Origin: an uncultured Chloroflexia bacterium
Lineage (GTDB): Bacteria > Chloroflexota > Anaerolineae > Anaerolineales > Villigracilaceae
DNA: 64,000 nucleotides
Direction: 5' to 3'
Assembly: GCA_963840265.1 (NCBI GenBank)
Contig: CAWIYA010000002.1
Coordinates: forward strand, 612,289-676,288
Shown in pieces: positions 10,497 to 39,351 of the stretch (within the stretch, counting starts at the first letter, position 1; each line of letters starts with the position of its first letter). The notes beneath the pieces are model-generated. The model ran no database searches. It was given only the letters and a program-made list of their open reading frames with translations, and was not told where the DNA came from. The translations under genes and the position numbers were made by a program.

Positions 10497-10585
10497 TTGA
10501 CATCTCCTTATTTAATACTATCTAAATTCTTTATCCAAACATTCCACCGTGTTTGGGGAATTTGGGAAATTGGGAATTGAATAGA

Positions 10586-10792
10586 TTAGTAAACTGGTGA
10601 ACCCACATTTCTGTTTTGAGAGGTAGACGACCGAAGCATTTGGAATTTTGAGTTGTAAGCATAATAATTAGGTGATTCCCTGGGCAAGAAGAATGAAAGC
10701 CGGGCAAACTGCATCAATTTGAGACCATAGGGGGGATATTCCTCTCCCAGACGGCGAGAACCTTTTCGAGGGAATTGGAGGCATGAGTACAA
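10586..10792 (-). pseudogene. N-terminal remnant of a CPBP paralogue
   Basis: PPYGLKLMQFARLSFFL...RNVGSPVY aligns with PRYGPMLMLFARSSFIL...RNWWPVY of 15071..15853. At DNA level, 10675..10705 matches 15723..15753 at 28 of 31 nt. There is no room for the remainder of the gene. Confidence 0.55.
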
Positions 10793-11742: not shown

Positions 11743-11750
11743 GGTCTATC

Positions 11751-25106: not shown

Positions 25107-27947
25107 ATGGATCTGAAAACCACTCTCTCCAGCATCCTTCCTGAAGAGCGCATCCTGACGAGTCCGCTCGAGCGCTATGCATATGCAAACGACGCATCCT
25201 ATTTCAGATTGATCCCGCAAGCAATTGTACAGCCCATCTCGATCGATGAGATCCGCAGCCTGTTCCAATTTTCACAGCGGAACCGTATTCCCATTACTTT
25301 CCGCGCCGCTGGTACCAGCCTTTCAGGACAGTCCATCAGCAACGGCATTTTGGTTGTTCTTTCACGGTACTGGGGAAACGTCCGGGTGGAAGACGGTGGC
25401 GCCCTTGTGCGTGCCCAGCCTGGTGTGGTGGGAAGCTTCATCAACAATGTTCTCAAGCCCTACGGACGCCGCATTGGTCCCGACCCGGCCTCCCTAGACG
25501 CAGCCATGTTGGGAGGAATTCTAGCCAACAATTCCAGCGGGATGTGCTGCGGGGTGGCGGAGAATGCTTATCACACCGTCCACTCGTTGACGTTGATTCT
25601 GCCAAACGGACTGGTACTGGATACAGGCGCACCAGATGCTAATGCGCGGTTCCGGGAGGGAGCCCCCGAGATCGCCAACGGCCTGCTCGAATTGCGCGGG
25701 CGTTTACTTGCGGATGCCGCACTATCAGAACGCGTGCTCCTCCGGTACCAGACGAAGAATACCGATGGCTATTCGCTGAATGCACTGCTCGATTTCGATA
25801 ATCCCAAAGACATCCTGACCCACCTCATGATCGGCTCGGAAGGCACTTTGGGCTTCATTGCCGAGGCAGTGCTACATACTCTGCCTGATTACACGCGCAA
25901 ATATACGGGTCAACTATATTTCCGGAACATCCAGGATGCGGCCAAAGCAATAGAATCTCTGCGCGATTCGGGGGCGCGTGCAGCCGAAATCATGGAGCGT
26001 GCTGCCCTGCGCTCAGTGGAGAACCTGGCTGGGGCACCAATCATCCTGCGCCAATTACCAGATTCGGCTGCCGCCATCCTGGTGGAATATCAGGGCAGCA
26101 CCACGGAGGATATCATCACTTTTCAAAAGATCTCAGCCCGCATAGTTCGGGGTATGCACTTGCTGTACGACCCAGAGTTTACGGAAGATCCGCTCGTCCA
26201 GGCAAACCTATGGAAATTAAGAAAAGGCCTGTTCCCCACCATGGGTGCCATGAGACCCAGGGGTTATTCTGTTATGACGGAAGATCTGGTGTTCCCGGTA
26301 CCGTGCCTGGCTGAAGCCATCACCGACTTGAAATCCAAATTCCAAGGTCATGGCTACGAGGATGCAATTATTTTTGGACACGCCAAAGATGGCAACCTGC
26401 ACGTCAACTTCAGCTGCCTGCTCAACAGCCAGGAGGAAATCCTGCGCCTGGAGCGCTTCCTGGACGATATGCTTGGATTGGTAAGGAAAAAGTATGATGG
26501 TGCGCTGAAGGGGGAACATGGGACTGGGCGCGCCGTGAGCCCATATCTGGAAGCTGAGTGGGGACGCAACGGCCTTGCAATCATGCAAGATATCAAGTCA
26601 CTTTTTGACCCCTCCGGCATGCTCAACCCGGATGTAATCATCAACCTCAACACCCGCTCCCACATCTCGGACATCAAGGATATGCCCCCGGTAGAAGAGG
26701 AAGTGGACAAATGCATCGAGTGCGGGTTTTGTGAAGCACGCTGTCCCAGCCGGCGCCTAACCCTGACCCCACGCCAGCGCATTGTGATTCGGCGTGAAAT
26801 CGCCCGGCTCCACAATTCAGAAACGGATGCCCCCCTGCTATATACTCTTTTGACCGATTTCAAATATGCCGGCCTGGATACCTGCGCTGTGGACGGGTTA
26901 TGTGCTTCAGCCTGCCCGGTAAACATTAACACCGGCGATTTGACCAAGCACTTGCGGGCCGATCTGGTGACCCCGCTCGCTGCAAAAAATGCACATTGGC
27001 TTGTGAAGCATTTTAGGGGGGTGGAGAAATCCCTGGCCGCTGGTGTTAAACTCGGGCATGCGGCCGAATCGGTCATTGGGGCGAAGGCCATCACAGGGCT
27101 GACTCGTATTGGCGAAAAAATCTCAGGGATGACCCTTCCCAAGTGGAACACAGCCGTGCCATATGTCCCAGCGAGGCGTCCCGTAACCCAACGAGCAGGT
27201 GCGGATTATATATACTTCCCCTCCTGCATCTCGCGGCGTTTGGGAGTCCCTAAACAAGGCATGTTTTCGCTGGCCGAAACTATGGTCACAGTTGCAAAAA
27301 GAGCGGGAGTTTCGCTGTGGATTCCGGAGGATGTGGATGGCAACTGCTGCGGTATGCCATTCGGCTCCAAGGGCTACACAGCCGCGTACAAAGTCATCCG
27401 TCGGCGAACCCTGGAGCGGTTCTGGGAATGGTCTGAAAAGGGGCGCCTGCCAATCATAATCGACACCACATCCTGCACATATACCCTGCGCCAGTATGCT
27501 GGTAACCTCTCCGACCTGACACCCGAAGAGCGCGTCATTTTTGAGAAACTCACCCTTCTTGATGGACTTGAACTGATGCATGATGTACTACTGCCTGGGC
27601 TGGACGTACAGCAGGTGACTGATGCGGTGGTATTGCATCCCAACTGCTCGAGCCGCAAATTAAACCTGCAAGATAAAATGGTTGCCATTGCAAGCCGGTG
27701 TGCAAAAACAGTTACAGTGCCTCTCAACCTGGATTGCTGCGCTTTTGCTGGTGATCGCGGTTTGCTCTTCCCCGAATTGACCGACTCAGCCACCTCCCTG
27801 GAAAGCGCTGAAGTTAACGCCCGTCCCTACGACGGATACTATTCATCCAATATCACGTGTGAGATGGGCATGACGCTTGCCACCCAGCACAATTACCACT
27901 CCATTATCTACCTGCTGGAGAAAGCATCACGTGATTCCTCCCAATGA
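25107..27947 (+). CDS. fused FAD-binding / Fe-S-binding oxidoreductase (Dld-II / YdiJ-like D-2-hydroxyacid dehydrogenase)
   Basis: 946 aa. It has an N-terminal FAD-linked oxidase domain (FRAAGTSLSGQS), ferredoxin-type motifs CIECGFCEARCP and CAVDGLCASACP, and C-terminal CCG-type repeats (NCCGMPFG, DCCAFAGDRG). Confidence 0.8.
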   Translation: MDLKTTLSSILPEERILTSPLERYAYANDASYFRLIPQAIVQPISIDEIRSLFQFSQRNRIPITFRAAGTSLSGQSISNGILVVLSRYWGNVRVEDGGALVRAQPGVVGSFINNVLKPYGRRIGPDPASLDAAMLGGILANNSSGMCCGVAENAYHTVHSLTLILPNGLVLDTGAPDANARFREGAPEIANGLLELRGRLLADAALSERVLLRYQTKNTDGYSLNALLDFDNPKDILTHLMIGSEGTLGFIAEAVLHTLPDYTRKYTGQLYFRNIQDAAKAIESLRDSGARAAEIMERAALRSVENLAGAPIILRQLPDSAAAILVEYQGSTTEDIITFQKISARIVRGMHLLYDPEFTEDPLVQANLWKLRKGLFPTMGAMRPRGYSVMTEDLVFPVPCLAEAITDLKSKFQGHGYEDAIIFGHAKDGNLHVNFSCLLNSQEEILRLERFLDDMLGLVRKKYDGALKGEHGTGRAVSPYLEAEWGRNGLAIMQDIKSLFDPSGMLNPDVIINLNTRSHISDIKDMPPVEEEVDKCIECGFCEARCPSRRLTLTPRQRIVIRREIARLHNSETDAPLLYTLLTDFKYAGLDTCAVDGLCASACPVNINTGDLTKHLRADLVTPLAAKNAHWLVKHFRGVEKSLAAGVKLGHAAESVIGAKAITGLTRIGEKISGMTLPKWNTAVPYVPARRPVTQRAGADYIYFPSCISRRLGVPKQGMFSLAETMVTVAKRAGVSLWIPEDVDGNCCGMPFGSKGYTAAYKVIRRRTLERFWEWSEKGRLPIIIDTTSCTYTLRQYAGNLSDLTPEERVIFEKLTLLDGLELMHDVLLPGLDVQQVTDAVVLHPNCSSRKLNLQDKMVAIASRCAKTVTVPLNLDCCAFAGDRGLLFPELTDSATSLESAEVNARPYDGYYSSNITCEMGMTLATQHNYHSIIYLLEKASRDSSQ

Positions 27948-27994
27948 ATTCGGAGGGTGGAGTAACTCAGGCACCGTTGTTGTTATTAATAATA

Positions 27995-28023
27995 ACCGGG
28001 CAGGGATTGGAAACCTGCCCGGT
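27995..28023. terminator. hairpin between convergent genes
   Basis: 10-bp stem ACCGGGCAGG/CCTGCCCGGT with a 9-nt loop, followed by CATGTTTT. Confidence 0.65.
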
Positions 28024-28056
28024 CATGTTTTCAAAATGAAAGCTAGATTTTCGTAT

Positions 28057-28890
28057 TTAGGGTGCCAAATCAAGGTCTTTAAAAGCTTCGACCTGAAACC
28101 GGATGGCGCGTTCGGTCGGGAGACGTTCAATGGATGATGCACCGAAGAAACCAACAATGCCGGGCATCTGCTTCAATGCCTTGCCAACATTCTCAGGCTC
28201 ATCAAATGGTCCTCCATGGCATATCACCATCAAATCCTTGCGAACAGACCACCCCGCTTCAGCGATAATCATCACCTTTTCGATGGCTTCTTCAAGAGTG
28301 AAGGCGACAGCCGCTCCTATACTACCGGCGGTGGTCAGGCCAACATGACCCACCAGCAGGTCGGCTCCGGCTTTGGTCATGGCTTTTGCTTCGTCTGCGG
28401 TGAAAGCGTAAGGTGTGGTGAATAGATCCATCTCGTGTGCAAGGCGGATCATTTCGACCTCTTTATCATAGCCCATGCCACTGGCCTCCAAATTGGCACG
28501 GAACTTGCCGTCGAACAAACCAACAGTCGGGAAATTTTGCACGCCTGAAAAGCCTATCTCTTTCAATTGTTTCAAAAAAACGGACATCAATCGAAATGGA
28601 TCGGTTCCACAAACTCCAGCTTGAACCGGGGTGTCCTTTACAACCGGCAATACCTCTGCTGCCATTTCGACAACAATGCCATTGGCATCGCCATATGGCA
28701 GTAATCCCGCGAGAGAGCCGCGGCCAGCCATCCGATAGCGTCCCGAGTTGTAAATGATGATGACGTCAGCACCACCAGCTTCGGCGAACTTTGCGGAAAT
28801 CCCAGTCCCTGCCCCACACCCAACGATCGGTTTTCCAGCTTTCACCTGGGTCTGCAGGCGCTTGATGATCTCTTTGCGTGAAATTGTCAT
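28057..28890 (-). CDS. phosphoenolpyruvate hydrolase-like TIM-barrel protein (PF09370 type; partner of Tm-1-like proteins)
   Basis: 277 aa. GCGAGTGISAKFAEAGGADVIIIYNSGRYRMAGRGSLAG resembles the PEP-mutase/isocitrate-lyase-like fold. It is a paralogue of 61301..62158. Confidence 0.7.
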   Translation of the reverse strand: MTISRKEIIKRLQTQVKAGKPIVGCGAGTGISAKFAEAGGADVIIIYNSGRYRMAGRGSLAGLLPYGDANGIVVEMAAEVLPVVKDTPVQAGVCGTDPFRLMSVFLKQLKEIGFSGVQNFPTVGLFDGKFRANLEASGMGYDKEVEMIRLAHEMDLFTTPYAFTADEAKAMTKAGADLLVGHVGLTTAGSIGAAVAFTLEEAIEKVMIIAEAGWSVRKDLMVICHGGPFDEPENVGKALKQMPGIVGFFGASSIERLPTERAIRFQVEAFKDLDLAP

Positions 28891-28902
28891 TGCGAATATC
28901 TC

Positions 28903-30114
28903 CTATTTTTCCAGCATGTTCAACAAGATTTGAGCTGCCCTGTCGGCGAATTCAGGATCATTTACATTATTGTCCATTTCTATGACCGGGATGCCCGGCC
29001 TGAGATTCTTTTTTATGGCCTCAAAACAGGCGCGATCTGCCTCTGGGTCCCAAAACGCACATCCGAGACTATCCAGTTGCGAAACTCCCTTGAGCGGGAT
29101 CAAGATGACAATCCAGGATGTGGCGGCGTTGGCAGCGGCAGCAATCATCCCCCCGATGCGCTTATTTTCTTCAGCGTTGGTACGCAGCAAAGTGATATTG
29201 GGATTCCATTGATACAAATTGCGGGACTTGAATTTATCGGGGACGGTTTCGATCCCCCAAAAGTTCGCCATATCCACGCAGCCCGGAACGAGAACTGCCG
29301 GGATGCCGGCGCGCGAGGCAGCCAGGCAGCGGTCGGGACCCGCGCTCAACACTCCTCCGCACACCTCATCGGCAAGCTCGGTGGTGGTGATGTCCAATAC
29401 TGCCGTAATATAGCCGTCGGAGATCAGACCTTCCATTGTCCTGCCTCCCGTGCCTGTGGCATGAAAGACCAAGACTTCATAACTGCGATTCTCCAGAACG
29501 CCACGCGCCCGATCCACGGCAAGGGTAGTATTTCCAAACATCGAGGCTGCGATCAATGGTTTCTCCTCGTCTCCTTTGACGGTTTTCATTTTTACCATTC
29601 CGGTAATTGCCCCCACGGCATTGCTATAGATGGTGCGGCTGATTCGATTGAAGCCAGCCACATCCACAATAGACGGAATGAAAATAATATCCCGGGTTCC
29701 GATGTAGGCACTGACATCCCCTCCACCCAGGGTGGACACCATTACTTTAGGAATGCCCACCGGCAGGCCGCGCATCGCCGCGGTCGTGAGGGATGTCCCA
29801 CCGCCACCACCCATCCCGATGATCCCATCCAACCTGCCCTCGTCGAAAAGGCGGCGAACAACCACAGTTAAGCCAGCCGCCATGACCCGCATGGCTTCAT
29901 CCTTATGGCCGCCGGAAGCCAGGAAGGATAAATCTCCACCGCCTGCTTTTGCCACTTCCTGGCGTGTAATATCTGGTGCAAAGGTGGGTTCCCCCAACAC
30001 ACCAAAGTCAATCACCAAGGTTCCGATATCTTCTTTCCGAATCAAGTCCTTTAGATAAGCAAATTCCTGACCTTTTGTGTCCAGGGCTCCGGTGATGACA
30101 ATCGTTTTGGTCAT
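28903..30114 (-). CDS. Tm-1-like ATP-binding protein (UPF0261 family), copy 1
   Basis: 403 aa. It has the N-terminal IVITGALDTKGQEFAYLKD and the MGGGGGTS motif. It is a paralogue of 37051..38289 and 60071..61291. Confidence 0.75.
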   Translation of the reverse strand: MTKTIVITGALDTKGQEFAYLKDLIRKEDIGTLVIDFGVLGEPTFAPDITRQEVAKAGGGDLSFLASGGHKDEAMRVMAAGLTVVVRRLFDEGRLDGIIGMGGGGGTSLTTAAMRGLPVGIPKVMVSTLGGGDVSAYIGTRDIIFIPSIVDVAGFNRISRTIYSNAVGAITGMVKMKTVKGDEEKPLIAASMFGNTTLAVDRARGVLENRSYEVLVFHATGTGGRTMEGLISDGYITAVLDITTTELADEVCGGVLSAGPDRCLAASRAGIPAVLVPGCVDMANFWGIETVPDKFKSRNLYQWNPNITLLRTNAEENKRIGGMIAAAANAATSWIVILIPLKGVSQLDSLGCAFWDPEADRACFEAIKKNLRPGIPVIEMDNNVNDPEFADRAAQILLNMLEK

Positions 30115-30125
30115 ATTACCTTCAT

Positions 30126-30884
30126 CTAGAAAAAAATTAGCAACAAAGCTGTAATTACCAGCAGAACAAGAATGATGTTATCGAAAATATTCTTCGATAC
30201 CTTGGTCACCAACCAGCGTCCAATCCAAACGCCAAATGGGACAATCGGGAACACCCATGCAACCTGCCAGAGCAGGTGGAAGTCGAACATTCCGGTAAAG
30301 AAGTAATATGGAACTTTGACCCAGTTGAGAATGGCATAGAACAAAACGGAGGTTGCAACGAATACTGCCGGAGTTACATCATGAAGCATGAGATAAATAC
30401 TAATAGGAGGCACGCCACTATGGGCCATTGCAGATGTAAAGCCTGACGTGGTTCCAGCCAACCAGCCATGCCAGTTTTTCTCCTGATATTTCACCGAACC
30501 GATGATACGCTTTTCGAGAAGCTTGTAAATAACAAATAACAATGCAATGATAGCCAGCCCGATCTTGAGCACTTGAGTGGAGACATTGGTTATGAAATAA
30601 GTACCGATTGTCACTCCTACTACTGCGCCTGGGATCAACAACCTGACCAACCGCCCGTTCCAGCGTTTCCAATGGAAAGCAATTGAGAACACATCCGCAA
30701 GCAACATAATAGGTAGCAACAAGCCAAGAACCTCATTTACAGGCATTACCAGCGCCATCAACGGCGTTGACAAGGTTCCCGCCATTCCACCCAATCCGCC
30801 TTTCGACAAGCTGACTAATAACGTGACGGCTGCAAGCATGATTAAAAATACAGTCGGATTATTTGTCATTATTTTTGGCTCCAA
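30126..30884 (-). CDS. TauE/SafE-family anion exporter-like membrane protein
   Basis: 252 aa, about 8 TM segments, Gly-rich helices (LSKGGLGGMAG). The start (30884 or 30869) overlaps the 3' end of the AOR gene. Confidence 0.65.
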   Translation of the reverse strand: MEPKIMTNNPTVFLIMLAAVTLLVSLSKGGLGGMAGTLSTPLMALVMPVNEVLGLLLPIMLLADVFSIAFHWKRWNGRLVRLLIPGAVVGVTIGTYFITNVSTQVLKIGLAIIALLFVIYKLLEKRIIGSVKYQEKNWHGWLAGTTSGFTSAMAHSGVPPISIYLMLHDVTPAVFVATSVLFYAILNWVKVPYYFFTGMFDFHLLWQVAWVFPIVPFGVWIGRWLVTKVSKNIFDNIILVLLVITALLLIFF

Positions 30885-32691
30885 GCGAATCCGAAATTCC
30901 TAGCTCATTCAACCGCAACAGGGTTGGAACGCCATTCATGTCCCATCCCATGATGCGATAGTATTCATCAAGCATTGGTTCAAGATCAACCACCTGCCCG
31001 CCGGCAGAACCAACAACCATTGGCTGAGTCAGGTTGCGAGCCGGCAGAGTATCTGCGGCACGGGAAAACCCTTCGCGGACATTGAACAGACGAGACAGGG
31101 TTGAGATGCGCTCCCCAAGTCGCTCCAAATCCGACACTTTGGGATAGTCAAAACCCGTCGCAGCCTTAACCAACTGCCACAATTCCTTGAGGGTCATCCC
31201 ATATCCGGGGAAAGCGCATAAACATGCACTATCCCAAACGGCTTTATCGGCCTGGTGATCGCGGAACAGCTGCGGTTTTCCTTCTATCGTCAGCGGATTG
31301 GCAGCCCCGCTAAATATCTCGCCCAGCGGGGCACCGCGCAGGTGACAGGCTCCGCGTTCAGAAACTGCATAAGCCAGCGCCGTACCCTTGGCCGCGTTGG
31401 GGTGATAGGCGGGCATTTCCAGCCCTTTGACATGCATTGCGAACGCCTCAATTTCAGGGAAGCGTTTTGCAATTGCAGCCACTCCCTGTACCAACCAAGT
31501 GCCACAGCCCTCACCTTTGGCCATTTTCTCTACCAGTGCAATTGCAGCATCTGCATTCCCCCAGGTTGGGGAAATTCCATCCAGTACATTTGAAGACACA
31601 ATGCTACGCTCGAACATCTCCATTATGAGACCGACCACACCGCCCACGCTGATCGTATCCAAACCATATTCATCGCACAGCCAATTAAGCCGGATAATTG
31701 CGTCACGGCTGCCGATGGCGCAGTTCGACCCAAGTGCATAGATGGTCTCATATTCCGGCCCCTCAATAACTTTGCCATCTTCCAGGGGTGAGGTCCATTT
31801 GCCACAACCGATCGGGCAACCAAAACAGGCATACTCATTTTTCCAGCTATTCTGCCGGAAGGCGTCGCCGGAAATCTCGTCCGACATATCAAACTGTCCC
31901 TGTTGGAAGTTGCGGGTGGGCAGCGCTCCCATGACATTGATCACCTCGAGGATGTTTGCCGTTCCCTCTTTGCGAAGCATGCTGACGGGACCAGACATGC
32001 GCACCGCCCGGAAGGCCAGCTGCAAGGCACGCTCGTATTGTTTTTTATCGTGGACGTGGACACTCCCGCTGCCACGAACGACGATGGCCTTGAGTTTTTT
32101 CGAGCCCATAACTGCACCAACCCCACCACGAGCCAATGCCCTGCTTTCGTTAAAGATCCCGGCAAGGTTACGCTGCGCCTCCCCGGGAGGACCGATCACC
32201 AGGGATTGCCATTCCTGTCCTAATTCAGTCTTAATTTTTTCTGTTGCCGCGGAGATGGTGGTACCCCACAGATTTTCGGCCGGACGGATTTCCACGCGGT
32301 CGCCATCGATGACCAGCATGACAGGGGTTTGAGCAGCGCCTGTTAGAACCAAGGCATCATAACCCGCATATTTAAACACGTTGCCCCAATAGCCTCCGCA
32401 GTAGGAATCGAAATAGGTGCCGGTGGCCGGGCTCTTGGTAGTCAGGCCGAAACGCCCTGCGGTAGGCGCTGTAGTACCAGTCAGTGGCCCGGTGTGGAAG
32501 ATCATGTGGTTTTCCGGAGAGAGTGGATCCACCCCAGCAGGTTGCTCAGTGAACAACAGCCAGGCTCCCAGCCCTTTACCGCCGAGAATCAGCGGCATTG
32601 CCTCTGCCGGCAAGGATGTAGTTTCAATGGATCCTGTGGATAAATTCACCCGCAAGATGCGGTCGCAGTATGCTCGTTGAGTTAGATCCAT
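30859..32691 (-). CDS. aldehyde:ferredoxin oxidoreductase family (tungsto/molybdopterin) enzyme
   Basis: 610 aa. The N-terminus ILRVNLSTGSIETTSLP...LGGKGLGAWLL is typical of AOR. The [4Fe-4S] motif CFGCPIGC plus a distal Cys (DSACLCAF) is present. Confidence 0.85.
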   Translation of the reverse strand: MDLTQRAYCDRILRVNLSTGSIETTSLPAEAMPLILGGKGLGAWLLFTEQPAGVDPLSPENHMIFHTGPLTGTTAPTAGRFGLTTKSPATGTYFDSYCGGYWGNVFKYAGYDALVLTGAAQTPVMLVIDGDRVEIRPAENLWGTTISAATEKIKTELGQEWQSLVIGPPGEAQRNLAGIFNESRALARGGVGAVMGSKKLKAIVVRGSGSVHVHDKKQYERALQLAFRAVRMSGPVSMLRKEGTANILEVINVMGALPTRNFQQGQFDMSDEISGDAFRQNSWKNEYACFGCPIGCGKWTSPLEDGKVIEGPEYETIYALGSNCAIGSRDAIIRLNWLCDEYGLDTISVGGVVGLIMEMFERSIVSSNVLDGISPTWGNADAAIALVEKMAKGEGCGTWLVQGVAAIAKRFPEIEAFAMHVKGLEMPAYHPNAAKGTALAYAVSERGACHLRGAPLGEIFSGAANPLTIEGKPQLFRDHQADKAVWDSACLCAFPGYGMTLKELWQLVKAATGFDYPKVSDLERLGERISTLSRLFNVREGFSRAADTLPARNLTQPMVVGSAGGQVVDLEPMLDEYYRIMGWDMNGVPTLLRLNELGISDSLGAKNNDK

Positions 32692-32700
32692 GTTAATTTC

Positions 32701-34026
32701 CTACTCCCGCACCGGGTTAAAATTCGGCCTATCGGCGATGAATATCGCCCCAGTGGGACAGATGCCTGCGCACTCAGGTTTGCCCCTGCACAGATCACAG
32801 ACCACCGGGAACCAGTCTAGCTGTCGTCCATCATCGAAGATAAGACTCCCTTCCGAATGAATAATCACATGTGTTGGGCAGATGTCCACACATTTGGAGC
32901 AATTGTCACAGCGTTCGGGGATCAATTCCACTGCGCCACTCTCAAGGTGCCACCGCAAGGCGTTGGTTGGGCAAATATCGATGCACTTTTTACAAATGGT
33001 GCAGAACATGACCTTATGGTGCCCGGGCTGGCTGCCCAACTGAATCCGCAGGCGCGCTTGATTGAGTCCATAGTCACCGTTGCCGTGGCTGGCTACGCAG
33101 GCTCCCACACATAAATCGCAGCCTGTACACAAGGCAGGCCTGGCTTTCAAGCGCACGAAATCCCAGGTTTTCCCGCGTAAGGCTTCATCCACCGTCCAGC
33201 CGCGATGGCCAATATTGCTGAGTTGTTCGATCATCGCTTTAGGATCCGGAGATTTGGTCACATTACGCCCCATCAAGCAACCGGATGCTCCAGCTTCATG
33301 GGCCTCAGCGTATAGTTCAAGTGCGTCGCGCTCGTTATCTGAACGAGCGCCACCCAGCACCAGGGTGGGTACACCACTGATATCAATCAGGTTTCGGAAT
33401 GAATCCACGTCCCCCGTGTATGGGATCTTGAGAGCGTCAGCTCCGATCTCCACCGCCATGCGGGCTCCCAGGGTAAGAATCTCAACAATATTTGCACCGG
33501 TTACCTGTCCCCCGTACGCCAACGGCTCAATGATACAAGGCAACCCGATCCGGCGGCACTCATTGACGAATTTGGCACACTTATCGATGCCGATGGTCTC
33601 CACTTTATCGCTGTATCCCAAAAACAAATACACCGTGATGGCAGTGGCACCTAATGACAAAGCCTGTTCTGCGGTGATAATTTTCTCATTGATCAGCAAG
33701 CGCTGAGGGACGGCATTACTCACGTTCGAAGTGCCCAAGCGGGGCATATTCATCCAGTCGGCGCGGACTATCAAAGCGGGACCAGCGCGCCCTTTGAATA
33801 GGGGAGCCAAACGAAGAGCTTGTCCGGGAGACAGCAGAATCCCATCCACACCGCCAGCTATCACCGCCTCAACGGTCGCGCGCAGGTTGACCACATTTGG
33901 CGTTACATCACTCATATAGCCATGATCCGCTGCCACGCAAATGGCGCGGCCATCCCCCTGGTGGTTGAACAGCCGGTCCATCCGGTTTTGCAGCCCTGTT
34001 TTCATTTCACGAAACCTCATGGGCAT
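32701..34026 (-). CDS. class I aldolase (DhnA/ADH-synthase type, DeoC/LacD superfamily) fused to a C-terminal polyferredoxin
   Basis: 441 aa. The aldolase motifs are DGRAICVAADHG, LGATAITVY, GADALKIPYTGD (Schiff-base Lys), LGGAR and MGRNV. These are followed by four cluster motifs: CTGCDLCVGAC, CTICKKCIDICP, CDNCSKCVDICP and CDLCRGKPECAGICP. Confidence 0.8.
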   Translation of the reverse strand: MPMRFREMKTGLQNRMDRLFNHQGDGRAICVAADHGYMSDVTPNVVNLRATVEAVIAGGVDGILLSPGQALRLAPLFKGRAGPALIVRADWMNMPRLGTSNVSNAVPQRLLINEKIITAEQALSLGATAITVYLFLGYSDKVETIGIDKCAKFVNECRRIGLPCIIEPLAYGGQVTGANIVEILTLGARMAVEIGADALKIPYTGDVDSFRNLIDISGVPTLVLGGARSDNERDALELYAEAHEAGASGCLMGRNVTKSPDPKAMIEQLSNIGHRGWTVDEALRGKTWDFVRLKARPALCTGCDLCVGACVASHGNGDYGLNQARLRIQLGSQPGHHKVMFCTICKKCIDICPTNALRWHLESGAVELIPERCDNCSKCVDICPTHVIIHSEGSLIFDDGRQLDWFPVVCDLCRGKPECAGICPTGAIFIADRPNFNPVRE

Positions 34027-34780
34027 GCACCAAGTGCTTCATAATTAGCAGCACTGTGCTAGGATCTTCAACTGCGAATATGCCTTCATCAAGCCAGAAA
34101 CCGACTGCTCCAAGCTGCAGGGCTTCTGCGAGAATGGGTTGATTAGATTCCAGGCTGACAGTTCTGACCCATACCGGCAGGCCGCTGCACATGGCTTGGA
34201 TGGTCTTAAAGGATTGCGCTTCAGGCCAGGGAATGATGATGCCATCGGCACCGCCCTCAAGAGCATAAGAGACGCCCAGTTCGATGGCTTTTTTCATCAG
34301 GACTATACGCGGACCAACAGGCTGGACGTCCACCAGCAACGGCATGCCAATCTTGAGCCCGTCCAACGCCAAATTGACCACCTCCTGAATACAACGGGCT
34401 TCTATCTCCTCCTCATGACCAAGGATAAAATGCATCACCAGGGCGTTAGCGCCAAGGTCCAAGGCATCCGCGGGGTTGAGAAGTGGAATATATTGGATCA
34501 TTTCAGGCGGCAGGACGAAGTCAGTCCCACGCAGGGCATTGGTCCAATCTGCACGAATAAGGAGAGCGGCTTCCTGTCGAGTCCGAGTTCCCAGTTTACG
34601 CGCCTGCCCGGGACTGGTGACGATCCCATCCAAAAACGGCAATAACGGGCGGACAGATTCTTCGAAATGTTCCAATCCTGGAAGTACACCCAGAACCAAA
34701 CCATTGCTGGTATCCAAAACCAGGCTGTGCCCATCTGAAGAATTAAGCAACTCATTCAAGCGGTATTGTTTACTATTCAT
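34007..34780 (-). CDS. DhnA-type aldolase-like protein lacking the Schiff-base lysine (probably non-catalytic paralogue)
   Basis: 257 aa, colinear with the aldolase domain of 32701..34026. It reads GADGIIIPWP where the neighbour has GADALKIPYTG, and LDTSNG where the neighbour has AADHG. It overlaps the neighbour by 20 nt. Confidence 0.6.
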   Translation of the reverse strand: MNSKQYRLNELLNSSDGHSLVLDTSNGLVLGVLPGLEHFEESVRPLLPFLDGIVTSPGQARKLGTRTRQEAALLIRADWTNALRGTDFVLPPEMIQYIPLLNPADALDLGANALVMHFILGHEEEIEARCIQEVVNLALDGLKIGMPLLVDVQPVGPRIVLMKKAIELGVSYALEGGADGIIIPWPEAQSFKTIQAMCSGLPVWVRTVSLESNQPILAEALQLGAVGFWLDEGIFAVEDPSTVLLIMKHLVHAHEVS

Positions 34781-36060
34781 ACTTCTCCTCGCAAATAGGG
34801 AATCGTTTGCGGTCCTTCAGGAATGACACATATACGAGCCTGCGAACCGTACTTCGCTTGCAATTGTAAGACAGTTTGCTCAATGTTTCGAGTGGGTATG
34901 AACAACGCCTGCTCGATCTGCCGGTCTGTCAGACCATCACTGTAAACGTACACATCTGCCCGGTGTTGAATTTGAGCCTGGATTTGCACTTGCCACTGGT
35001 CCTGTTCACAGAACCCGGGAATGGAGATCATGTCAATCACACCTTGCGGGGAGCCAGCCTTAACCAGCAAGGCTGCATACCGCCCGTGATTGGGTAAACC
35101 GTCCTCGCAGGCTGCCGCCATTAGAATACTTCCCGCGTCTCGAACGATCTGGTTTGCAGCACTCATGCCTTTCACGGATTGATAAAGATTTTGATCCAAT
35201 GGATAGCCACTATTGGTGGTTATCACAATATCGTAAGGTTTGTCCACCGCGCGCATGGCGTTCTCTCTCACAAATGCGCAACCCTCTGCATGAGCGGAAA
35301 GCATGTCGCCTGCAAAGATGCCAGTAATCTCGCGTTTAACATTGAGGGACACATTCAGCAGGAAGGATGGATTTGTGCGCAATGCCACGGCGCGCATTTC
35401 CTCCCAGATGGGATTCCCTACAAGAACTCCCCAGGTCGCCTTGGGGTGAGCGATCATTTCAAGCCCGTGATTGGTAAAGACACTCTCTGCTCCCGAAAGC
35501 GAGGGAATTACAGCCTTGGGTCCGCCGCTAAACCCGGCAAAAAAATGTGGTTCAATAAAGCCAGTCAGGATGCGAACATCAGCTTCAAGATATGAGCGAT
35601 TGATACGCACCGGATGTCCCAATGAAGTGTCCCCCAGATTAACAAGGTTAGTTTTATCGTTGCAGTCATGCTGGAGACAGCGGTACCCATCCACGATGCG
35701 ATCGCCGAGCATGGCGCGCAACTCGTCTTTGGTTTGCGGACGGTGCGTTCCCAGTCCATTCAACAGTGTGATGTTCTCCCGCGCAATTCCTGCCGACTCC
35801 AATTCAACGAGCAGGACGGGGAGGATGCGATCATTGGGGGTGGCGCGGGTGATGTCGGTATGAACCACCACAACCTGGTCGCCAGGTTTGACAAGTTCTG
35901 CCAAAGGAGGAGATCCAATCGGATTGCGCAAAGCTTCCTGCAGAGCCTCAATCTCATTGGGTAAACCTGGCAAGAAGCGCGGCGCCAAAACGTCCGTTGT
36001 GTCGGGGAGCGTTACGTTCAGACCATAGCGGCCATAAGCCAATTTAATATGCATTGCCAT
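34777..36060 (-). CDS. LarA-family (nickel-pincer cofactor dependent) 2-hydroxyacid racemase/epimerase homologue
   Basis: About 427 aa. It has a DUF2088-type N-terminus with NGLGTHRP and the FAGFSGGPKAV motif, which includes the Lys at the cofactor-tether position. The start is uncertain (36060, 36054 or 36099). Confidence 0.75.
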   Translation of the reverse strand: MAMHIKLAYGRYGLNVTLPDTTDVLAPRFLPGLPNEIEALQEALRNPIGSPPLAELVKPGDQVVVVHTDITRATPNDRILPVLLVELESAGIARENITLLNGLGTHRPQTKDELRAMLGDRIVDGYRCLQHDCNDKTNLVNLGDTSLGHPVRINRSYLEADVRILTGFIEPHFFAGFSGGPKAVIPSLSGAESVFTNHGLEMIAHPKATWGVLVGNPIWEEMRAVALRTNPSFLLNVSLNVKREITGIFAGDMLSAHAEGCAFVRENAMRAVDKPYDIVITTNSGYPLDQNLYQSVKGMSAANQIVRDAGSILMAAACEDGLPNHGRYAALLVKAGSPQGVIDMISIPGFCEQDQWQVQIQAQIQHRADVYVYSDGLTDRQIEQALFIPTRNIEQTVLQLQAKYGSQARICVIPEGPQTIPYLRGEV

Positions 36061-36120
36061 TAAATGGGACACGGATTGGCATGGACCATCATCGCACAAT
36101 CCGTGTCCAGGGTTCCAAAC

Positions 36121-37047
36121 TTAAAATGCCCGGTCAACAAACTCACGGGTATGAACGTTTACGGGGACCTTCATCAACTCAAGAACTCCGCGGGCTGTAT
36201 GTTCCGAAAGCCGGCGAAAAGCTTCTTCGCCTTTCTCCTTGGTGGCGCGCAACGGGTTGCCAATCACGCCGCTCTCGATGAATTCGTGGTGATCCATTGG
36301 GAAAGCAAAGTACTTATAGCCATCAAATTCCACGTCGGGCATGCCGTCTTTTTTCTCGAATGACCTGGGCAGGAATTCCGGGACATGCGCCTTGGTAAAA
36401 TTGGCGCGATCCATACGGACAAATCTCTCATTCCAAGCAAGGTCCTGGGAAGTTTCAAGTTCGCTCGAGTGCCAACCGGGGGTCTCCTCAGGGGGGTTTT
36501 CCATTAATCCTGCAAGAATACCTACATAATTCTCCATATATGGTTTAACAAAGCCAATCAGCGCACCGGTCTCATAGCGCAGTTTGCGCAGGATCGGATC
36601 GACCACTTTAACGTTGGAACCATGACCATTGACAAAGATGATGCGGTTGAAGCCATGATGGATCAGGCTTCGCCCAACATCGTACAGCAGGTTCAACAAG
36701 GTACTGCTGCGCAAGGTGATGGTGCCGCGTCCCATCCCGGGTCTATGCATGTGCTGCGGCGAATAGCCTGTCCAGATGGGCGGGGAATGCAACACTCCAA
36801 TCATCTCCGACACACGGCAGGAAATTTCAATGGCGGTAATTGTATCGGTGTAGATCGGGAGGTGTTGTCCGTGCTGCTCAAAGCTGGCCATCGGCACCAG
36901 GATCGTATCTTTTGTTTTAAGATATTCCTGGATATCAACGTAGGTCAGGTCGCCCAATTCCCACGAAAGGAATTTCTTGCGAAATTCTTCATCTCCTTCG
37001 GTTAGGTGGGGAATATCTCTGTAGTCGCGTCCATTTCCAGTTAACAT
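36121..37047 (-). CDS. creatininase-family metal-dependent amidohydrolase
   Basis: 308 aa. Motifs: EQHGQHLPIYTD, FVNGHGSN and HSSELETS. Confidence 0.75.
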   Translation of the reverse strand: MLTGNGRDYRDIPHLTEGDEEFRKKFLSWELGDLTYVDIQEYLKTKDTILVPMASFEQHGQHLPIYTDTITAIEISCRVSEMIGVLHSPPIWTGYSPQHMHRPGMGRGTITLRSSTLLNLLYDVGRSLIHHGFNRIIFVNGHGSNVKVVDPILRKLRYETGALIGFVKPYMENYVGILAGLMENPPEETPGWHSSELETSQDLAWNERFVRMDRANFTKAHVPEFLPRSFEKKDGMPDVEFDGYKYFAFPMDHHEFIESGVIGNPLRATKEKGEEAFRRLSEHTARGVLELMKVPVNVHTREFVDRAF

Positions 37048-37050
37048 TTT

Positions 37051-38289
37051 TTACTCCTTGCTCATAAGATCCATGAACAGGTCAGCGACCTCGATTCCGA
37101 ATTTGGGATCGTTGACATGGCGTTCGTAGGTAAGAATTGGGATGTCTTTCCGGATCCCACTGCGCAGCGTTTCCAGGAAGGCCGCGTCAGCTTCCGGATT
37201 CCAGAAAACGCCACCTGGAACATTGGGGATGGAGAGTCCCTTGGTGGGAACGGCGATACGAAGCGGTCCTTTAGCCAGGTTCAACCGTTCGGTAAAAAGG
37301 CGGCCGAGGGCGATCATTTCTGCATGGGTGGCACGCACGAGCGTGTACTCAGGATTGTGGTCATACACCGGGCGCCCTTGTAATGCGGGGGGAATTGCAC
37401 CCGCGTGGAATACGCAGAAGTCAATACAGCCTGGAACAACGACCTGCGGCAATCCCAGAAGACCAATCCGCTTGAGGCGGTCAGGACCGCCATCATGAAT
37501 TCCACCATTCATGGGATCGAATGTTTCATTGGTGGTGAAGTCTATCACGCCGACAAAATGACCGGTTTCTGCCAGTTCTTCCATGGCCCGGCCACCCACA
37601 CCGTTAGAGTGGAAGATGACAGCTTCGTATCCGTGTTCGGCCAAACGATCTTTGAGCGCCATCACAGACCTGGTGGTATTGCCCAGCATGGTTACGGCTA
37701 CATACTTTTCACCCGGGACAGGCTCCGGCAACCTGTGACCGTGTTGGACCATGCCCTTGAGGGCGGCAGCGACATTATCAAAGATCGTAGTAGCGATCGG
37801 ATTCAACCCTAGAATATCCACAATAGAGTGAACGACCATGATATCGCTTGTGCCAACCATGGGGTCGAAGTAATGCTTTCCAGAAGCGATCGGGGAAACC
37901 AACACCTTGGGTACGCCGACTGGGAGCTGCATCATGGCGGCTGAACCCATTACAGCTCCTTCCGCACCACCCATGCTTACAATGGCGTCCAGTTTGCCCT
38001 GAGAGAAAAACTCCAGGGTCAATTTTTTGAGGGCAGTGCGCATCCCTTCAACGGCCTTCCCGCGACTTCCGGCATTGCGGAGTGCCTCGATCGTCGTACC
38101 TGCATAACGAGCAGCTTCGGCATGGCTGATATCGCGACCCTTTTCCAGGACGATACCAATAGGTTCGCCTAGAATGCCCGAATCAACCACAATCGTTTCC
38201 AGGTCGAGGGCTTGCAAGCGGTCGCGCAGATAGGCAATCTCTGGTCCTTTAGTGTCCAGAGTGCCAATGATCATAACTTTTTTGCCCAT
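37051..38289 (-). CDS. Tm-1-like ATP-binding protein (UPF0261 family), copy 2, with no PEP-hydrolase-like partner
   Basis: 412 aa. It has VMIIGTLDTKGPEIAYLRD and MGGAEGAV. Its stop lies 3 nt before the creatininase-like gene. Confidence 0.75.
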   Translation of the reverse strand: MGKKVMIIGTLDTKGPEIAYLRDRLQALDLETIVVDSGILGEPIGIVLEKGRDISHAEAARYAGTTIEALRNAGSRGKAVEGMRTALKKLTLEFFSQGKLDAIVSMGGAEGAVMGSAAMMQLPVGVPKVLVSPIASGKHYFDPMVGTSDIMVVHSIVDILGLNPIATTIFDNVAAALKGMVQHGHRLPEPVPGEKYVAVTMLGNTTRSVMALKDRLAEHGYEAVIFHSNGVGGRAMEELAETGHFVGVIDFTTNETFDPMNGGIHDGGPDRLKRIGLLGLPQVVVPGCIDFCVFHAGAIPPALQGRPVYDHNPEYTLVRATHAEMIALGRLFTERLNLAKGPLRIAVPTKGLSIPNVPGGVFWNPEADAAFLETLRSGIRKDIPILTYERHVNDPKFGIEVADLFMDLMSKE

Positions 38290-38348
38290 TTAATACCTCA
38301 AAGAGGCAGGAATGGCAAACATCCACCCCTGCCCCGGGGTTGCAGCAA

Positions 38349-39236
38349 CTATTTAATTATTGGGAGAAGAGTTTCCGATGTCTTGGCGACCAACCAATCA
38401 TAGTATTCTTCGGACAACAGGTTGGATCCGTGTTCCTGAATGAACTTAAACTGTTCAGGACTAATGTCGACTGGATTCTTCTCAATGGCATTCGGGTATT
38501 GATTCGCGGGGGTGCGATCGATCGGAGCGACAAACTCTACGGTCAATGCGCCGTCATAGCCGATCGTCTTGAGCGTGCCGACCAACTTCAACCAGTCCCA
38601 ATGGCCCATGCCGGGTGCCATGCGATTGCTATCAGCAACGTGAAAATCCACCAACCTGCCCTTGGCAGACCGGATCGCCTCAAAAGGATCCGCTTCCTCG
38701 ATATTGAGGTGGAAGGCATCCAGGCATACACCGCACTCAGGACCAACCGCTTTCGCCAAGGCAAGGGCCTGGGCGGCGCGCGAGCAGAAATATGTCTCGA
38801 AGCGGTTGAGCGGTTCAAGTGCCAGTTTCACACCGGCCTTGGAGGCATGATCCTGGACTTCCTTCAAACTTTCCACTGCCCACTTCCATTCTTCCTCGGG
38901 GGTGGCCTCAGGATTGATCTTGCCGACCGTGCAGGGGACGATGGTGAGTTCATAACCTTCCATGTCCTTTACCAGGGTCACGCAGTCCTTGGTATATTTC
39001 ACAGAGTTCGCCCGCTGGGCTGGGTCCTTGGCAAGCAGGTTGCGGTCTTTGAGCATCAATGTCACCGCGCCCCAGCAGCGAATGTTGTTGTCTTTGAGGG
39101 TCTTTCGCAGTTCCTTGGCATTATAGATCTCCGGCTCGCCGCTGATCTCGATGCTCTCATAGCCGTACTTCTTGAGCCTGCGAATGGTGACCTCGGGCGA
39201 TTCAGCCCTCATCCAGTTGTGCATTGAGAGATGCAT
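38349..39236 (-). CDS. xylose isomerase-like TIM-barrel protein (sugar phosphate isomerase/epimerase family)
   Basis: 295 aa with an AP_endonuc_2-type pattern (LALEPLNRFE, DAFHLNIEE, HVADSNR). The equally long plus-strand ORF 38340..39227 is its antisense shadow. Confidence 0.8.
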   Translation of the reverse strand: MHLSMHNWMRAESPEVTIRRLKKYGYESIEISGEPEIYNAKELRKTLKDNNIRCWGAVTLMLKDRNLLAKDPAQRANSVKYTKDCVTLVKDMEGYELTIVPCTVGKINPEATPEEEWKWAVESLKEVQDHASKAGVKLALEPLNRFETYFCSRAAQALALAKAVGPECGVCLDAFHLNIEEADPFEAIRSAKGRLVDFHVADSNRMAPGMGHWDWLKLVGTLKTIGYDGALTVEFVAPIDRTPANQYPNAIEKNPVDISPEQFKFIQEHGSNLLSEEYYDWLVAKTSETLLPIIK

Positions 39237-39351
39237 TTCGTACCTCCTTTAAACAGAATGAATTTGGATAGGATGTAATCAAACTTAGTGTTACTCCACA
39301 ATTATGATAAAAACGCGGCATCCATAGATTTTGGAATGCCTCGCCTATATC

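Follow-up and report, generated by a model that had tools for sequence, protein, structure and literature searches.

A class I aldolase joined to a WorS-type iron-sulfur domain and encoded beside an aldehyde:ferredoxin oxidoreductase in an Anaerolineales genome

Introduction

Class II WORs are an established class of tungsten enzymes that consist of a large subunit, WorL, and a small subunit, WorS, with ferredoxin as the carrier (PMC13328260); WorS is defined as a subunit with four [4Fe-4S] clusters (PMC13328260), and AorA is described likewise (PMC10413684). The subject of this work is AldFd, an open reading frame (ORF) of 441 amino acids (34026..32701, minus strand) that joins a class I aldolase to a WorS-like domain, lies directly ahead of a gene for an aldehyde:ferredoxin oxidoreductase (AOR) of the WorL type, and follows the gene of a short aldolase paralogue, Ald2. 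These genes are found in a stretch of 64,000 nucleotides (nt) from an uncultured Chloroflexia bacterium (Anaerolineales; Villigracilaceae; GenBank assembly GCA_963840265.1, contig CAWIYA010000002.1, positions 612,289 to 676,288 of the forward strand), which is referred to as a whole as the window and in whose own numbering positions are given. Judged from gene content and homology, the system is a Class II WOR (WorL plus WorS) whose S subunit carries an aldolase.

The pairing of aldol cleavage with aldehyde oxidation has metabolic precedents. In the archaeal branched Entner-Doudoroff pathway, a 2-keto-3-deoxy-(6-phospho)gluconate (KD(P)G) aldolase is followed by glyceraldehyde:ferredoxin oxidoreductase, which converts the aldehyde into the acid with ferredoxin. 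Similarly, in the Embden-Meyerhof-Parnas-type degradation of 6-deoxyhexoses (FucI/FucK/FucA/AldA) and of sulfoquinovose (YihS/YihV/YihT plus sulfolactaldehyde dehydrogenase), an isomerase, a kinase and a ketose-1-phosphate aldolase act in turn to yield dihydroxyacetone phosphate (DHAP) and lactaldehyde or sulfolactaldehyde, which is oxidized to an acid and exported. Each of the superfamilies involved is already known, as are WorS-type subunits and, from the breakdown of sugars in archaea, the logic of an aldolase followed by an AOR; new at this locus are the covalent joining of a C-C lyase to the small subunit of an AOR, the obligatory presence of a paralogue devoid of the catalytic lysine, and the wide distribution. 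Two comprehensive surveys of tungsten enzymes, one from 2025 (PMC12096430) and one from 2026 that is based on gene neighborhoods and distinguishes five classes (PMC13328260), make no mention of an aldolase, and no DeoC/PF01791 entry stands among those entries in the supplement of the latter that were covered here. Full-text literature searches for an aldolase-AOR fusion, for lactaldehyde together with AOR, and for Cgl0159 returned nothing relevant; the initial annotation of this DNA, made from the sequence alone, knew of no characterized aldolase-ferredoxin fusion, and none is described in the literature searched.

Architecture of the Fusion Protein

The architecture of AldFd as an aldolase-WorS fusion is held with near certainty. 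A hidden Markov model scan with Pfam returned DeoC/LacD together with several 4Fe-4S dicluster families, and the N-terminal half is, by homology, a DhnA-type class I aldolase. This domain (residues 8-284; 33175..34005, minus strand) was delimited from the Pfam DeoC match, the match to MJ0400 and an AlphaFold2 (AF2) model; the DeoC/LacD match itself covers residues 30-257 (1.4e-23; 84 bits against a cut-off of 23.8). The best solved homologue in the Protein Data Bank (PDB) is the ADH synthase MJ0400 of Methanocaldococcus jannaschii (phmmer, 4.1e-29), followed by the FBPA of Thermoproteus tenax and by LsrF. The aldolase motifs put forward in the initial annotation were all located where it had placed them, namely DGRAICVAADHG at residues 25-36, GADALKIPYTGD around the lysine, LGGAR at residues 224-228 and MGRNV at residues 252-256. 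The predicted Schiff-base lysine, Lys200 (codon 33427..33429, minus strand), lies in GADALKIPYTGD and aligns with the catalytic-lysine region of MJ0400 and T. tenax FBPA; it belongs to an ADxxKxxYxGD motif on strand β6, the feature by which family members are recognized. In an alignment of 14 diverse fusions from Bacteria and Archaea, D34, H35, K200, Y203, G225, G226, G253 and R254 are invariant, and the last four of these align with the GG and GRN phosphate loops of MJ0400. Given the invariance of this lysine and of both phosphate loops, GG and GR(N/Q), the domain is predicted to bind, almost certainly, DHAP or a DHAP-like ketose-phosphate moiety. The AF2 model of AldFd has a mean predicted local distance difference test score (pLDDT) of 75.6, with the aldolase part mostly above 85, and a Foldseek comparison of that part with 2qjg gave a template modeling score of 0.87 normalized to the target (0.85-0.89 over the chains), while structures of SFP aldolases appeared as distant fold matches.

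The two parts are joined by a linker of about seven residues (approximately residues 285-291; 33154..33174, minus strand), which was placed from the AF2 model and from the ends of the alignments: the alignment to MJ0400 ends near residue 284 of the 441-residue ORF, those to the small subunit of WOR5 (WOR5-S) and to AorA begin at about residues 290-297, and a helix at 279-284 gives way to a strand at 292-295, with pLDDT below 50 at residues 289-291. The junction falls within 33050..33200, the range in which the initial annotation had located it, and the linker region is conserved in the fusion alignments.

Beyond the linker, residues 292-441 (32704..33153, minus strand) constitute a WorS/AorA-like four-[4Fe-4S] domain, recognized from its cysteine motifs and a family profile; the roughly 150 C-terminal residues with four cluster motifs that had been proposed are thus present, and they contain exactly 16 cysteines, all in the four motifs. 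Motif 1 reads CxxCxxCxxxC (residues 300-310; 33097..33129), whereas motifs 2 (residues 342-352; 32971..33003) and 3 (residues 373-383; 32878..32910) read CxxCxxCxxxCP, and motif 4 reads CxxCx5CxxxCP (residues 410-423; 32758..32799), all on the minus strand; accordingly, the CxxCxxCxxxC(P) pattern first assigned to all four holds for the first three and fails for the fourth. Fourteen of the 16 cysteines are invariant among the 14 diverse fusions. Orthologues P0117 and P0121 carry a histidine as the second ligand of the third motif (CxxHxxCxxxCP), and in the archaeal-type members P0316 and P0318 the second motif is split by an insertion and one cysteine is lost; these sequences suggest cluster variants, for example His-ligated or 3Fe clusters, in parts of the fusion family.

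The identity of the Fe-S domain was assessed by searching the PDB with a profile (A3) built from ten diverse members of the family. The Fe-S subunit of Pyrococcus furiosus WOR5 (6x6u_B) was matched end to end (6.3e-30; profile positions 2-138 on chain positions 4-141), followed by AorA (8c0z_C, 4.4e-27) and WorS (9mqx_E, 8.1e-21), with BamC (3.4e-14) and HycB-type proteins (about 1e-14) lower. Scores at least as high are reached, over several separate stretches, by the repetitive polyferredoxins MvhB, 9sfi_O and FwdF; a free polyferredoxin of the MvhB/FwdF kind was considered and rejected, since these scores arise from many repeats and the single-stretch, full-length matches are AOR small subunits. 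The top-ranked homologues are small electron-transfer subunits that dock on large subunits of the AOR family (PMC10413684, PMC12318220, PMC13328260). By this homology, the fused domain is a relative of the AOR small subunit (WorS/AorA/WOR5-β), and the initial annotation, which took it for a tethered ferredoxin acceptor, has to be revised: with its best matches in WOR5 and AorA, the domain corresponds to the electron-transfer subunit of the AOR itself, and a soluble ferredoxin or another partner is still required downstream of the fused clusters.

AldFd ends about 18 residues past Cys423, its last cluster-ligating cysteine, and AorA runs about 23 residues past the aligned part. No C-terminal helix is present in the AF2 model of AldFd, where residues 432-441 have a pLDDT below 50, whereas the polymerization of AorA into filaments needs a C-terminal helix (PMC10413684), a feature that defines the AorA subclade only. 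Without a filament helix of the AorA type, AldFd could oligomerize only through its aldolase part.

The limits of the ORF itself deserve a comment. Most database orthologues of AldFd start at Met8 (34005), one base past the stop of Ald2, and for that reason the real product is probably a protein of 434 amino acids. At the other end, the stop codon (TAG, 32703..32701) is separated from the ATG of the AOR gene (32691) by the 9 nt GAAATTAAC (32692..32700, minus strand), exactly the spacing initially reported.

The Adjacent AOR

The AOR gene (32691..30859, minus strand; Pfam/NCBIfam) encodes a WorL-type protein of 610 amino acids with AFOR_N (244 bits, 1.3e-72) and AFOR_C (404 bits, 1.1e-120) domains in Pfam and with the expected CFGCPIGC cluster motif at residues 289-296. 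In the PDB it matches the AOR of P. furiosus (PfAOR, 1aor, 5.9e-129), WorL (9mqx_D, 1.1e-125) and AorB (8c0z_A, 3.9e-109), and it is nearer to these three (369-435 bits, with PfAOR at 435) than to WOR5 (208 bits). Alignment to 1aor indicates that T243, E313, Y427 and H448 (PfAOR numbering) are retained together with the cluster cysteines 288, 291, 295 and 494, residues that are listed as conserved in aldehyde-oxidizing members (PMC13328260); because the active-site residues of PfAOR and the cluster cysteines are conserved, the protein is predicted to be equipped for aldehyde oxidation. Its cofactor is presumed to contain tungsten and not molybdenum.

Neither AorC-like (FAD/NAD) nor Bfu-like (BfuABC) genes accompany the module in the window or in the loci of the genome scan. 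According to entries in the supplement of PMC13328260, ThiS-like genes flank other WorL genes and are thought to serve synthesis of the pterin cofactor. The Paramaledivibacter caminithermalis locus (L055) has a ThiS/MoaD-like gene at 10452..10646, some 2 kb downstream of its AOR gene, and no ThiS-like gene was seen beside the AOR gene in the window. The entries covered in the same supplement include another WorL of P. caminithermalis, on contig FRAG01000026, but not the one on FRAG01000066.

Ald2, a Paralogue without the Catalytic Lysine

The third member of the module, which went unmentioned in the initial annotation, is Ald2 (34780..34007, minus strand; Pfam/NCBIfam), a short DhnA-type protein of 257 amino acids. 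Its closest PDB match is LsrF (3.5e-11), and it shares 27% identity with the aldolase domain of AldFd, to which alignment reveals that the Schiff-base lysine is replaced by isoleucine, that ADHG has become TSNG, and that the LGG and GRN loops are gone. The lysine is missing from all 12 Ald2 orthologues aligned (25-78% identity) and from the clostridial and archaeal partners. Over all orthologues examined, its position is occupied by Ile, Val, Ala, Ser, Cys or Phe, with Cys in P. caminithermalis and Ala in Sigynarchaeota, and the ADHG, LGG and GRN motifs are lost in these orthologues too; the same applies to the other distant loci. The gene adjoins that of the fusion in about 40 loci, standing directly upstream of AldFd in bacteria and directly downstream of AOR in archaeal-type loci. 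Ald2 is therefore predicted from its sequence to be a non-catalytic partner subunit, which probably co-assembles with the aldolase domain of AldFd; in terms of gene content, the conserved unit is a triad of Ald2, the aldolase-WorS fusion and WorL. Since solved DhnA-type homologues contain 10 or 20 chains per PDB entry, a mixed ring of Ald2 and aldolase domains is a reasonable idea by analogy and may be how the two assemble.

Distribution and Co-occurrence with AOR

The fusion recurs far beyond what chance would allow. A protein collection clustered at 90% identity holds more than 120 fusion clusters (71-100% identity, 420-444 amino acids), all with DeoC and Fer4 domains, whose named members are metagenome-assembled genomes (MAGs) of Anaerolineae/Chloroflexi; a scan of one genome per species yielded 43 loci, all in Chloroflexota; and a library clustered at 50% contains full-length fusions down to 36% identity, in addition to unfused relatives. 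A further search with the distant fusion P0125 added about 58 fusion clusters (32-54% identity), from taxa that include the isolate P. caminithermalis (Clostridia), KSB1, Bathyarchaeota/Bathyarchaeia, Lokiarchaeota and Sigynarchaeota. In total, the fusion is present in more than 180 distinct protein clusters (NCBI, ENA, JGI and Logan assemblies) and in the isolate genome GCA_900142245.1. The only labels that databases give to these proteins are "4Fe-4S dicluster domain-containing protein", "Cgl0159 family protein" and "DhnA family aldolase / Fe-S hydrogenase component".

Downstream sequence is available for 38 of the fused Anaerolineae loci, and in 37 of these an AOR gene directly follows the fusion. 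Such a gene is also present in every distant locus with enough flank; the full triad also occurs in L049, L051, L052, L055 (P. caminithermalis, FRAG01000066) and L057 (Sigynarchaeota). The single fused locus without an AOR match, L008, has instead an unrelated ORF of 161 amino acids (11350..11835), with the contig ending 65 nt further on; this ORF presumably resembles the four-helix-bundle proteins sometimes encoded in intervening sequences of 23S rRNA. By comparison, the unfused relatives L035, L036 and L039 each encode Ald2 and an aldolase of 270 amino acids, and no AOR match was found near them, with L036 having only about 340 nt of downstream sequence. The neighbors in L035 are GH38, PfkB, Ald2, the aldolase, DUF4432 and URO-D, and the closest unfused relative, P0129, sits on a contig of only 1.2 kb. 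Because 37 of 38 fused loci have an AOR and the unfused relatives have no AOR match, the Fe-S domain and the AOR go together. The placing of an aldehyde producer beside an aldehyde oxidizer, which the initial annotation had drawn from this locus alone, accordingly reappears across Anaerolineae, Clostridia and Asgard archaea.

In four loci from MFD long-read MAGs (L009, L021, L037 and L041), tblastn found many genes, including the fusion and the AOR, to be split by frameshifts. The splits seem to stem from errors in long-read assembly and not from pseudogenization, and these loci are unsuited to arguments about gene boundaries.

Gene Neighborhood and Clues to the Substrate

Within the window, the minus-strand genes from 38289 to 28057 form a tightly spaced, unbroken run. 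It starts with a UPF0261 protein (38289..37051), a creatininase-family protein (37047..36121) and a LarA-family nickel-pincer 2-hydroxyacid racemase (34777..36099; NCBIfam Ni_dep_LarA, 503 bits against a cut-off of 460), continues through the triad, and closes with a TauE/SafE-family membrane protein (30884..30126; Pfam TauE, 3.1e-32), a second UPF0261 protein (30114..28903) and a PEP-hydrolase-like protein (28890..28057), the remaining assignments being from Pfam/NCBIfam. The LarA gene and Ald2 overlap at start and stop (ATGA). A promoter and terminator scan of 27800..39500 gave counts equal to the shuffled expectation and says nothing on the limits of the operon.

The window as a whole is a large carbohydrate island, with an ROK regulator, an ABC sugar transporter, XylA and XylB (both above NCBIfam equivalog cut-offs), several xylose-isomerase-like TIM-barrel isomerases/epimerases, and GFO/IDH/MocA dehydrogenases. 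A PfkB kinase (43225..43977, minus strand) has IolC as its best model (92 bits, far under the cut-off) and is short, at 250 amino acids against a typical 300-320; since matches to residues 1-246 occur in the orthologous loci L003, L020 and L032, the short length is conserved and is no truncation artifact. Two parallel 2-hydroxyacid dehydrogenase systems are encoded: a 946-residue fusion of a GlcD-like FAD oxidase with 4Fe-4S dicluster and CCG domains (Dld-II/YdiJ-like; 25107..27947, plus strand), convergent with the operon, and a pair of GlcD-like (40469..41914) and GlcF-like (39352..40467) genes inside the island.

Several neighbors bear on the fate of the acid product. LarA is syntenic in 13 loci, twelve from the one-genome-per-species scan (L001-L003, L005, L009, L015, L020, L021, L024, L032, L040 and L041) and one added from a separate locus (L047), and a homologue lies about 4-6 kb downstream of AOR in L026 and L029; we read it as context for the acid that is formed, outside the universal core. 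No larB, larC or larE was seen in the window. The creatininase-family protein beside LarA (36121..37047, minus strand) has matches that include the ring-opening hydrolase IolN (87 bits, under the cut-off). TauE follows AOR in 14 Anaerolineae loci and is, from its family, a candidate exporter of the acid; in clostridial loci, its position is taken by a LUD-domain protein and then an MFS transporter.

The upstream genes vary from lineage to lineage. In L044 and L046, the triad is preceded by a Fucose_iso_C isomerase, a class II aldolase-family protein, an FGGY kinase and DUF4432, a context in which GH43 is also found, and in L045 by Lyx_isomer and PfkB. L052 has a ribose-type ABC transporter and PfkB before the triad and a PMI-like gene and DUF4432 after AOR, whereas L051 and L055 have PfkB and a split transketolase before it and a LUD/LutC-like gene and an MFS transporter after AOR. 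A minimal version in L023 comprises PfkB, a xylA-like isomerase, Ald2, AldFd, AOR and TauE, and the archaeal loci L049 and L057 contain only AldFd-AOR-DeoC, with no catabolic genes near. Where catabolic genes are present, the common denominator is a series of isomerase, kinase, aldolase, AOR and acid handling or export. The assignment of a single sugar from context was abandoned, because the contexts disagree (xylose-isomerase-like, Fucose_iso_C, Lyx_isomer, split transketolase, and none in archaea).

No specific substrate of AldFd is held with more than tentative confidence. The leading guess, itself tentative, is a lactaldehyde-type aldehyde released from a 6-deoxy-ketohexose 1-phosphate, because three unrelated neighbors are of the lactate type, namely LarA, the D-lactate/glycolate-type flavoproteins and the LutC-like gene. 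Sulfolactaldehyde is a possible alternative in view of TauE, and glycolaldehyde, glyceraldehyde and acetaldehyde are possible as well; a C2 or C3 aldehyde, as envisaged in the initial annotation, is thus plausible.

Further genes around the module were recorded. The triad is accompanied by PfkB and a transketolase with separate N and C halves in L047 (14745..20829, minus strand), L051 (4502..7196) and L055 (1844..4504), so that this arrangement recurs in Anaerolineae and Clostridia; we take it to resemble the transketolase systems for apulose 4-phosphate or sulfosugars. URO-D-like methyltransferases and a B12-binding protein lie beside the module in L045 (2060..6061) and L035 (12101..13213), and B12-binding radical SAM enzymes lie upstream of it in L051 and L055; such genes are hints that the substrates might be modified sugars, e.g., O-methylated or deoxy sugars. 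Three UPF0261 (Tm-1-like) genes occur in the window, two of them paired with PEP-hydrolase-like TIM-barrel genes (28903..30114 with 28057..28890, minus strand; 60071..61291 with 61301..62158, plus strand), and a single characterized member of UPF0261, the kinase MarK, was met with in the literature (PMC12624787).

Proposed Mechanism and Alternative Explanations

Physical coupling of AldFd to the AOR is considered very probable, and on the question of function we lean, with less assurance, towards a catabolic module that channels an aldehyde from the aldolase to the AOR. In such a module, a sugar brought in by the neighboring transporter would be isomerized to a ketose, to which the PfkB or FGGY kinase encoded alongside would add a phosphate. 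The aldolase domain would form a Schiff base on Lys200 and split the phosphorylated ketose, giving DHAP and a small aldehyde that carries no phosphate. The WorS domain would dock on the AOR as in WOR5 and AorAB, and because of this docking the aldolase active site would come to lie near the substrate channel of the AOR, where the released aldehyde could be oxidized at once to the acid at the pterin site. Two electrons would pass from the pterin through the [4Fe-4S] cluster of the AOR and the four clusters (FS1-FS4) of the fused domain to an external acceptor, such as soluble ferredoxin, and the acid would be racemized and oxidized (LarA, the FAD/Fe-S 2-hydroxyacid dehydrogenases, the LutC-like protein) or exported (TauE or MFS). 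The benefits would be protection from a reactive aldehyde, a pull on aldol cleavage, and conservation of low-potential electrons.

Several points weigh against channeling of this kind. The aldolase of AldFd scores far below the NCBIfam equivalog cut-offs for FBA (NF040816; 134 against 430 bits), ADH synthase (TIGR01949; 132 against 299 bits) and LsrF (NF006081; 102 against 297 bits), and Leu169 is aligned with the catalytic Tyr146 of T. tenax FBPA (1w8s), for which reason the chemistry and substrate of AldFd may differ from those of the textbook fructose-bisphosphate (FBP) aldolases. AldFd as an equivalog of FBA, ADH synthase, LsrF or BagB was ruled out, all scores being below the cut-offs; these scores, together with the leucine at the Tyr146 position, mark its aldolase, at the level of sequence, as a distinct, uncharacterized subfamily. 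Moreover, no gene for a terminal electron acceptor is conserved beside the module, and the Fe-S domain is modeled with moderate confidence (pLDDT about 60-80). Neighborhoods vary by lineage, with archaeal loci lacking sugar kinases, and a common substrate is therefore not established. Gene adjacency and co-inheritance of an operon are by themselves no proof of a physical complex, and the proposal comes from sequence comparison and a structural model.

A more far-reaching reading, which we judge doubtful, draws on analogy: the aldolase part and Ald2 might form a DhnA-type ring that serves as a scaffold and displays several WorS domains, each with its AOR. A C-C lyase core would then replace the AorA nanowire or the Bfu "plug" as the organizer of the tungsten enzyme, Ald2 would determine how many of the bulky AOR units are present and how far apart they stand, a toxic aldehyde would be channeled, and unfavorable aldol cleavage would be pulled by the strongly exergonic, ferredoxin-reducing oxidation. 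If such a scaffold exists, the module would represent an old, widespread and unrecognized ferredoxin-yielding branch of anaerobic sugar catabolism, as it is common to Asgard archaea, Bathyarchaeia, Chloroflexota, KSB1 and Clostridia, and one more WOR lineage would gain a physiological role.

A glycolytic bypass is improbable. Here, FBP or tagatose 1,6-bisphosphate (formed via PfkB) would be cleaved, and the AOR would act as a glyceraldehyde 3-phosphate (GAP):ferredoxin oxidoreductase, of the bacterial GOR type, to give 3-phosphoglycerate. The DhnA-type family does include archaeal and Escherichia coli class I FBP aldolases, the closest structures bind fructose 1,6-bisphosphate, PfkB kinases adjoin the module in many loci, and the GOR of Caldicellulosiruptor bescii is a WorLS heterodimer of Class II (PMC13328260). 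However, the AOR resembles broad-range AORs (PfAOR, 435 bits) and reaches only 46 bits over 85 residues with the NCBIfam model of archaeal GAPOR, whose cut-off is 1300, the sequence of bacterial GOR not being part of this comparison; several loci have FGGY kinases or fucose/lyxose-type isomerases instead; and acid exporters, LarA and LutC-like genes beside AOR would be senseless for 3-phosphoglycerate.

Slightly less credible still is operation in reverse, in which reduced ferredoxin would drive the AOR from acid to aldehyde and the tethered aldolase or transaldolase would condense the aldehyde with DHAP or a donor resembling 6-deoxy-5-ketofructose 1-phosphate (DKFP), so that favorable C-C bond formation pulls the unfavorable reduction of the acid. 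AORs are reported to reduce non-activated acids with low-potential donors (PMC9295118); the closest solved aldolase homologue, ADH synthase, is a biosynthetic enzyme of the transaldolase type; the archaeal loci L049 and L057, with only AldFd-AOR-DeoC, are free of catabolic genes; and a tether would bring its greatest benefit if the concentration of free aldehyde had to be kept very low indeed. On the other side, the window and most bacterial loci are operons of sugar uptake, isomerase and kinase genes with acid-handling genes downstream, and AldFd lies far under the ADH-synthase cut-off.

It is very unlikely that no complex forms, with the Fe-S domain serving the aldolase or some other partner as a redox sensor or relay and the AOR using soluble ferredoxin like the monomeric Class I enzymes. 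The nearest solved AOR, that of P. furiosus, does work without a small subunit, and four-cluster modules of the HycB/DmsB kind are promiscuous building blocks; yet the family profile ranks WOR5-S, AorA and WorS above other single four-cluster subunits, fusion and AOR adjacency are co-inherited in lineages as far apart as Asgard archaea and Clostridia, whereas no AOR match accompanies the unfused relatives, and class I aldolases neither are known to use redox chemistry nor need it. Finally, a two-domain ORF created by mis-assembly or a lost stop codon might be imagined in a metagenome-type Anaerolineales genome, with frameshifts in the related long-read MAG loci L009 and L021, but the same architecture in more than 180 independent clusters and in the isolate GCA_900142245.1, with a conserved linker, rules out such an artifact for practical purposes.

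Channeling from aldolase to AOR, if true, would be the first instance of a C-C lyase as part of a tungsten-enzyme complex, and would provide a natural case of aldehyde channeling in which low redox potential is kept as reduced ferredoxin (for H2 or ion-gradient energy) and not as NADH. The usual description of AORs is that of broad-range "aldehyde detoxifiers"; covalent attachment to an aldolase names the source of the aldehyde, and with the small subunit linked to a specific aldolase the purpose of an AOR becomes a directly testable question. The module is abundant in Anaerolineae, which are dominant in anaerobic digesters and sediments, and reaches Asgard archaea, and it therefore has a bearing on anoxic carbon and hydrogen flow. 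For synthetic pathways that run through toxic glycolaldehyde or lactaldehyde, the module provides a ready-made template, and a cultured carrier, P. caminithermalis DSM 15212, makes experiments feasible.

Comparison with Known Systems

The closest described systems are the Class II WORs, such as P. furiosus WOR5/ASOR (PDB 6X6U/6X1O) and C. bescii GOR, which share with the present module a pterin-bearing large subunit and a small subunit of about 150 residues with four [4Fe-4S] clusters. In those systems the small subunit is encoded directly upstream, an order of S then L that is kept here, and ferredoxin is the presumed carrier. However, the small subunit is a free protein there, whereas here it forms the C-terminal part of a class I aldolase and is accompanied by a third gene, Ald2; in addition, the large subunit here is closer to PfAOR, WorL and AorB than to WOR5. 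In the "nanowires" AorABC of Aromatoleum aromaticum (8C0Z) and WorABCSL of Acetomicrobium mobile (9MQX), a polyferredoxin docks on the large subunit and provides the FS1-FS4 relay; homologous parts are found here (AorA, 4.4e-27; WorS, 8.1e-21; AorB, 3.9e-109; WorL, 1.1e-125), although AorC and BfuABC genes and the polymerizing C-terminal helix of AorA are absent.

With the DhnA-type aldolases (MJ0400, T. tenax and other archaeal FBPA, E. coli FbaB, and LsrF), AldFd shares the (β/α)8 fold, the lysine of the xADxxKxxYxGD motif, and the GG and GR(N/Q) loops; it differs from them by the leucine at the Tyr146 position, sub-cut-off scores, the Lys-less paralogue and the Fe-S domain. In the archaeal Entner-Doudoroff route, too, the aldehyde released by the aldolase carries no phosphate and is oxidized by a member of the AOR family, but the proteins of that route are separate, its aldolase is of the DHDPS/NAL type and forms pyruvate instead of DHAP, and there is neither a shared subunit nor a fusion. 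The 6-deoxyhexose and sulfoquinovose pathways have a comparable gene order, here represented by isomerase, PfkB or FGGY kinase, aldolase, AOR and TauE; they employ NAD-dependent dehydrogenases and aldolases of class II (FucA) or of the LacD type (YihT), whereas the module described here combines a ferredoxin-linked pterin enzyme with a DhnA-type aldolase.

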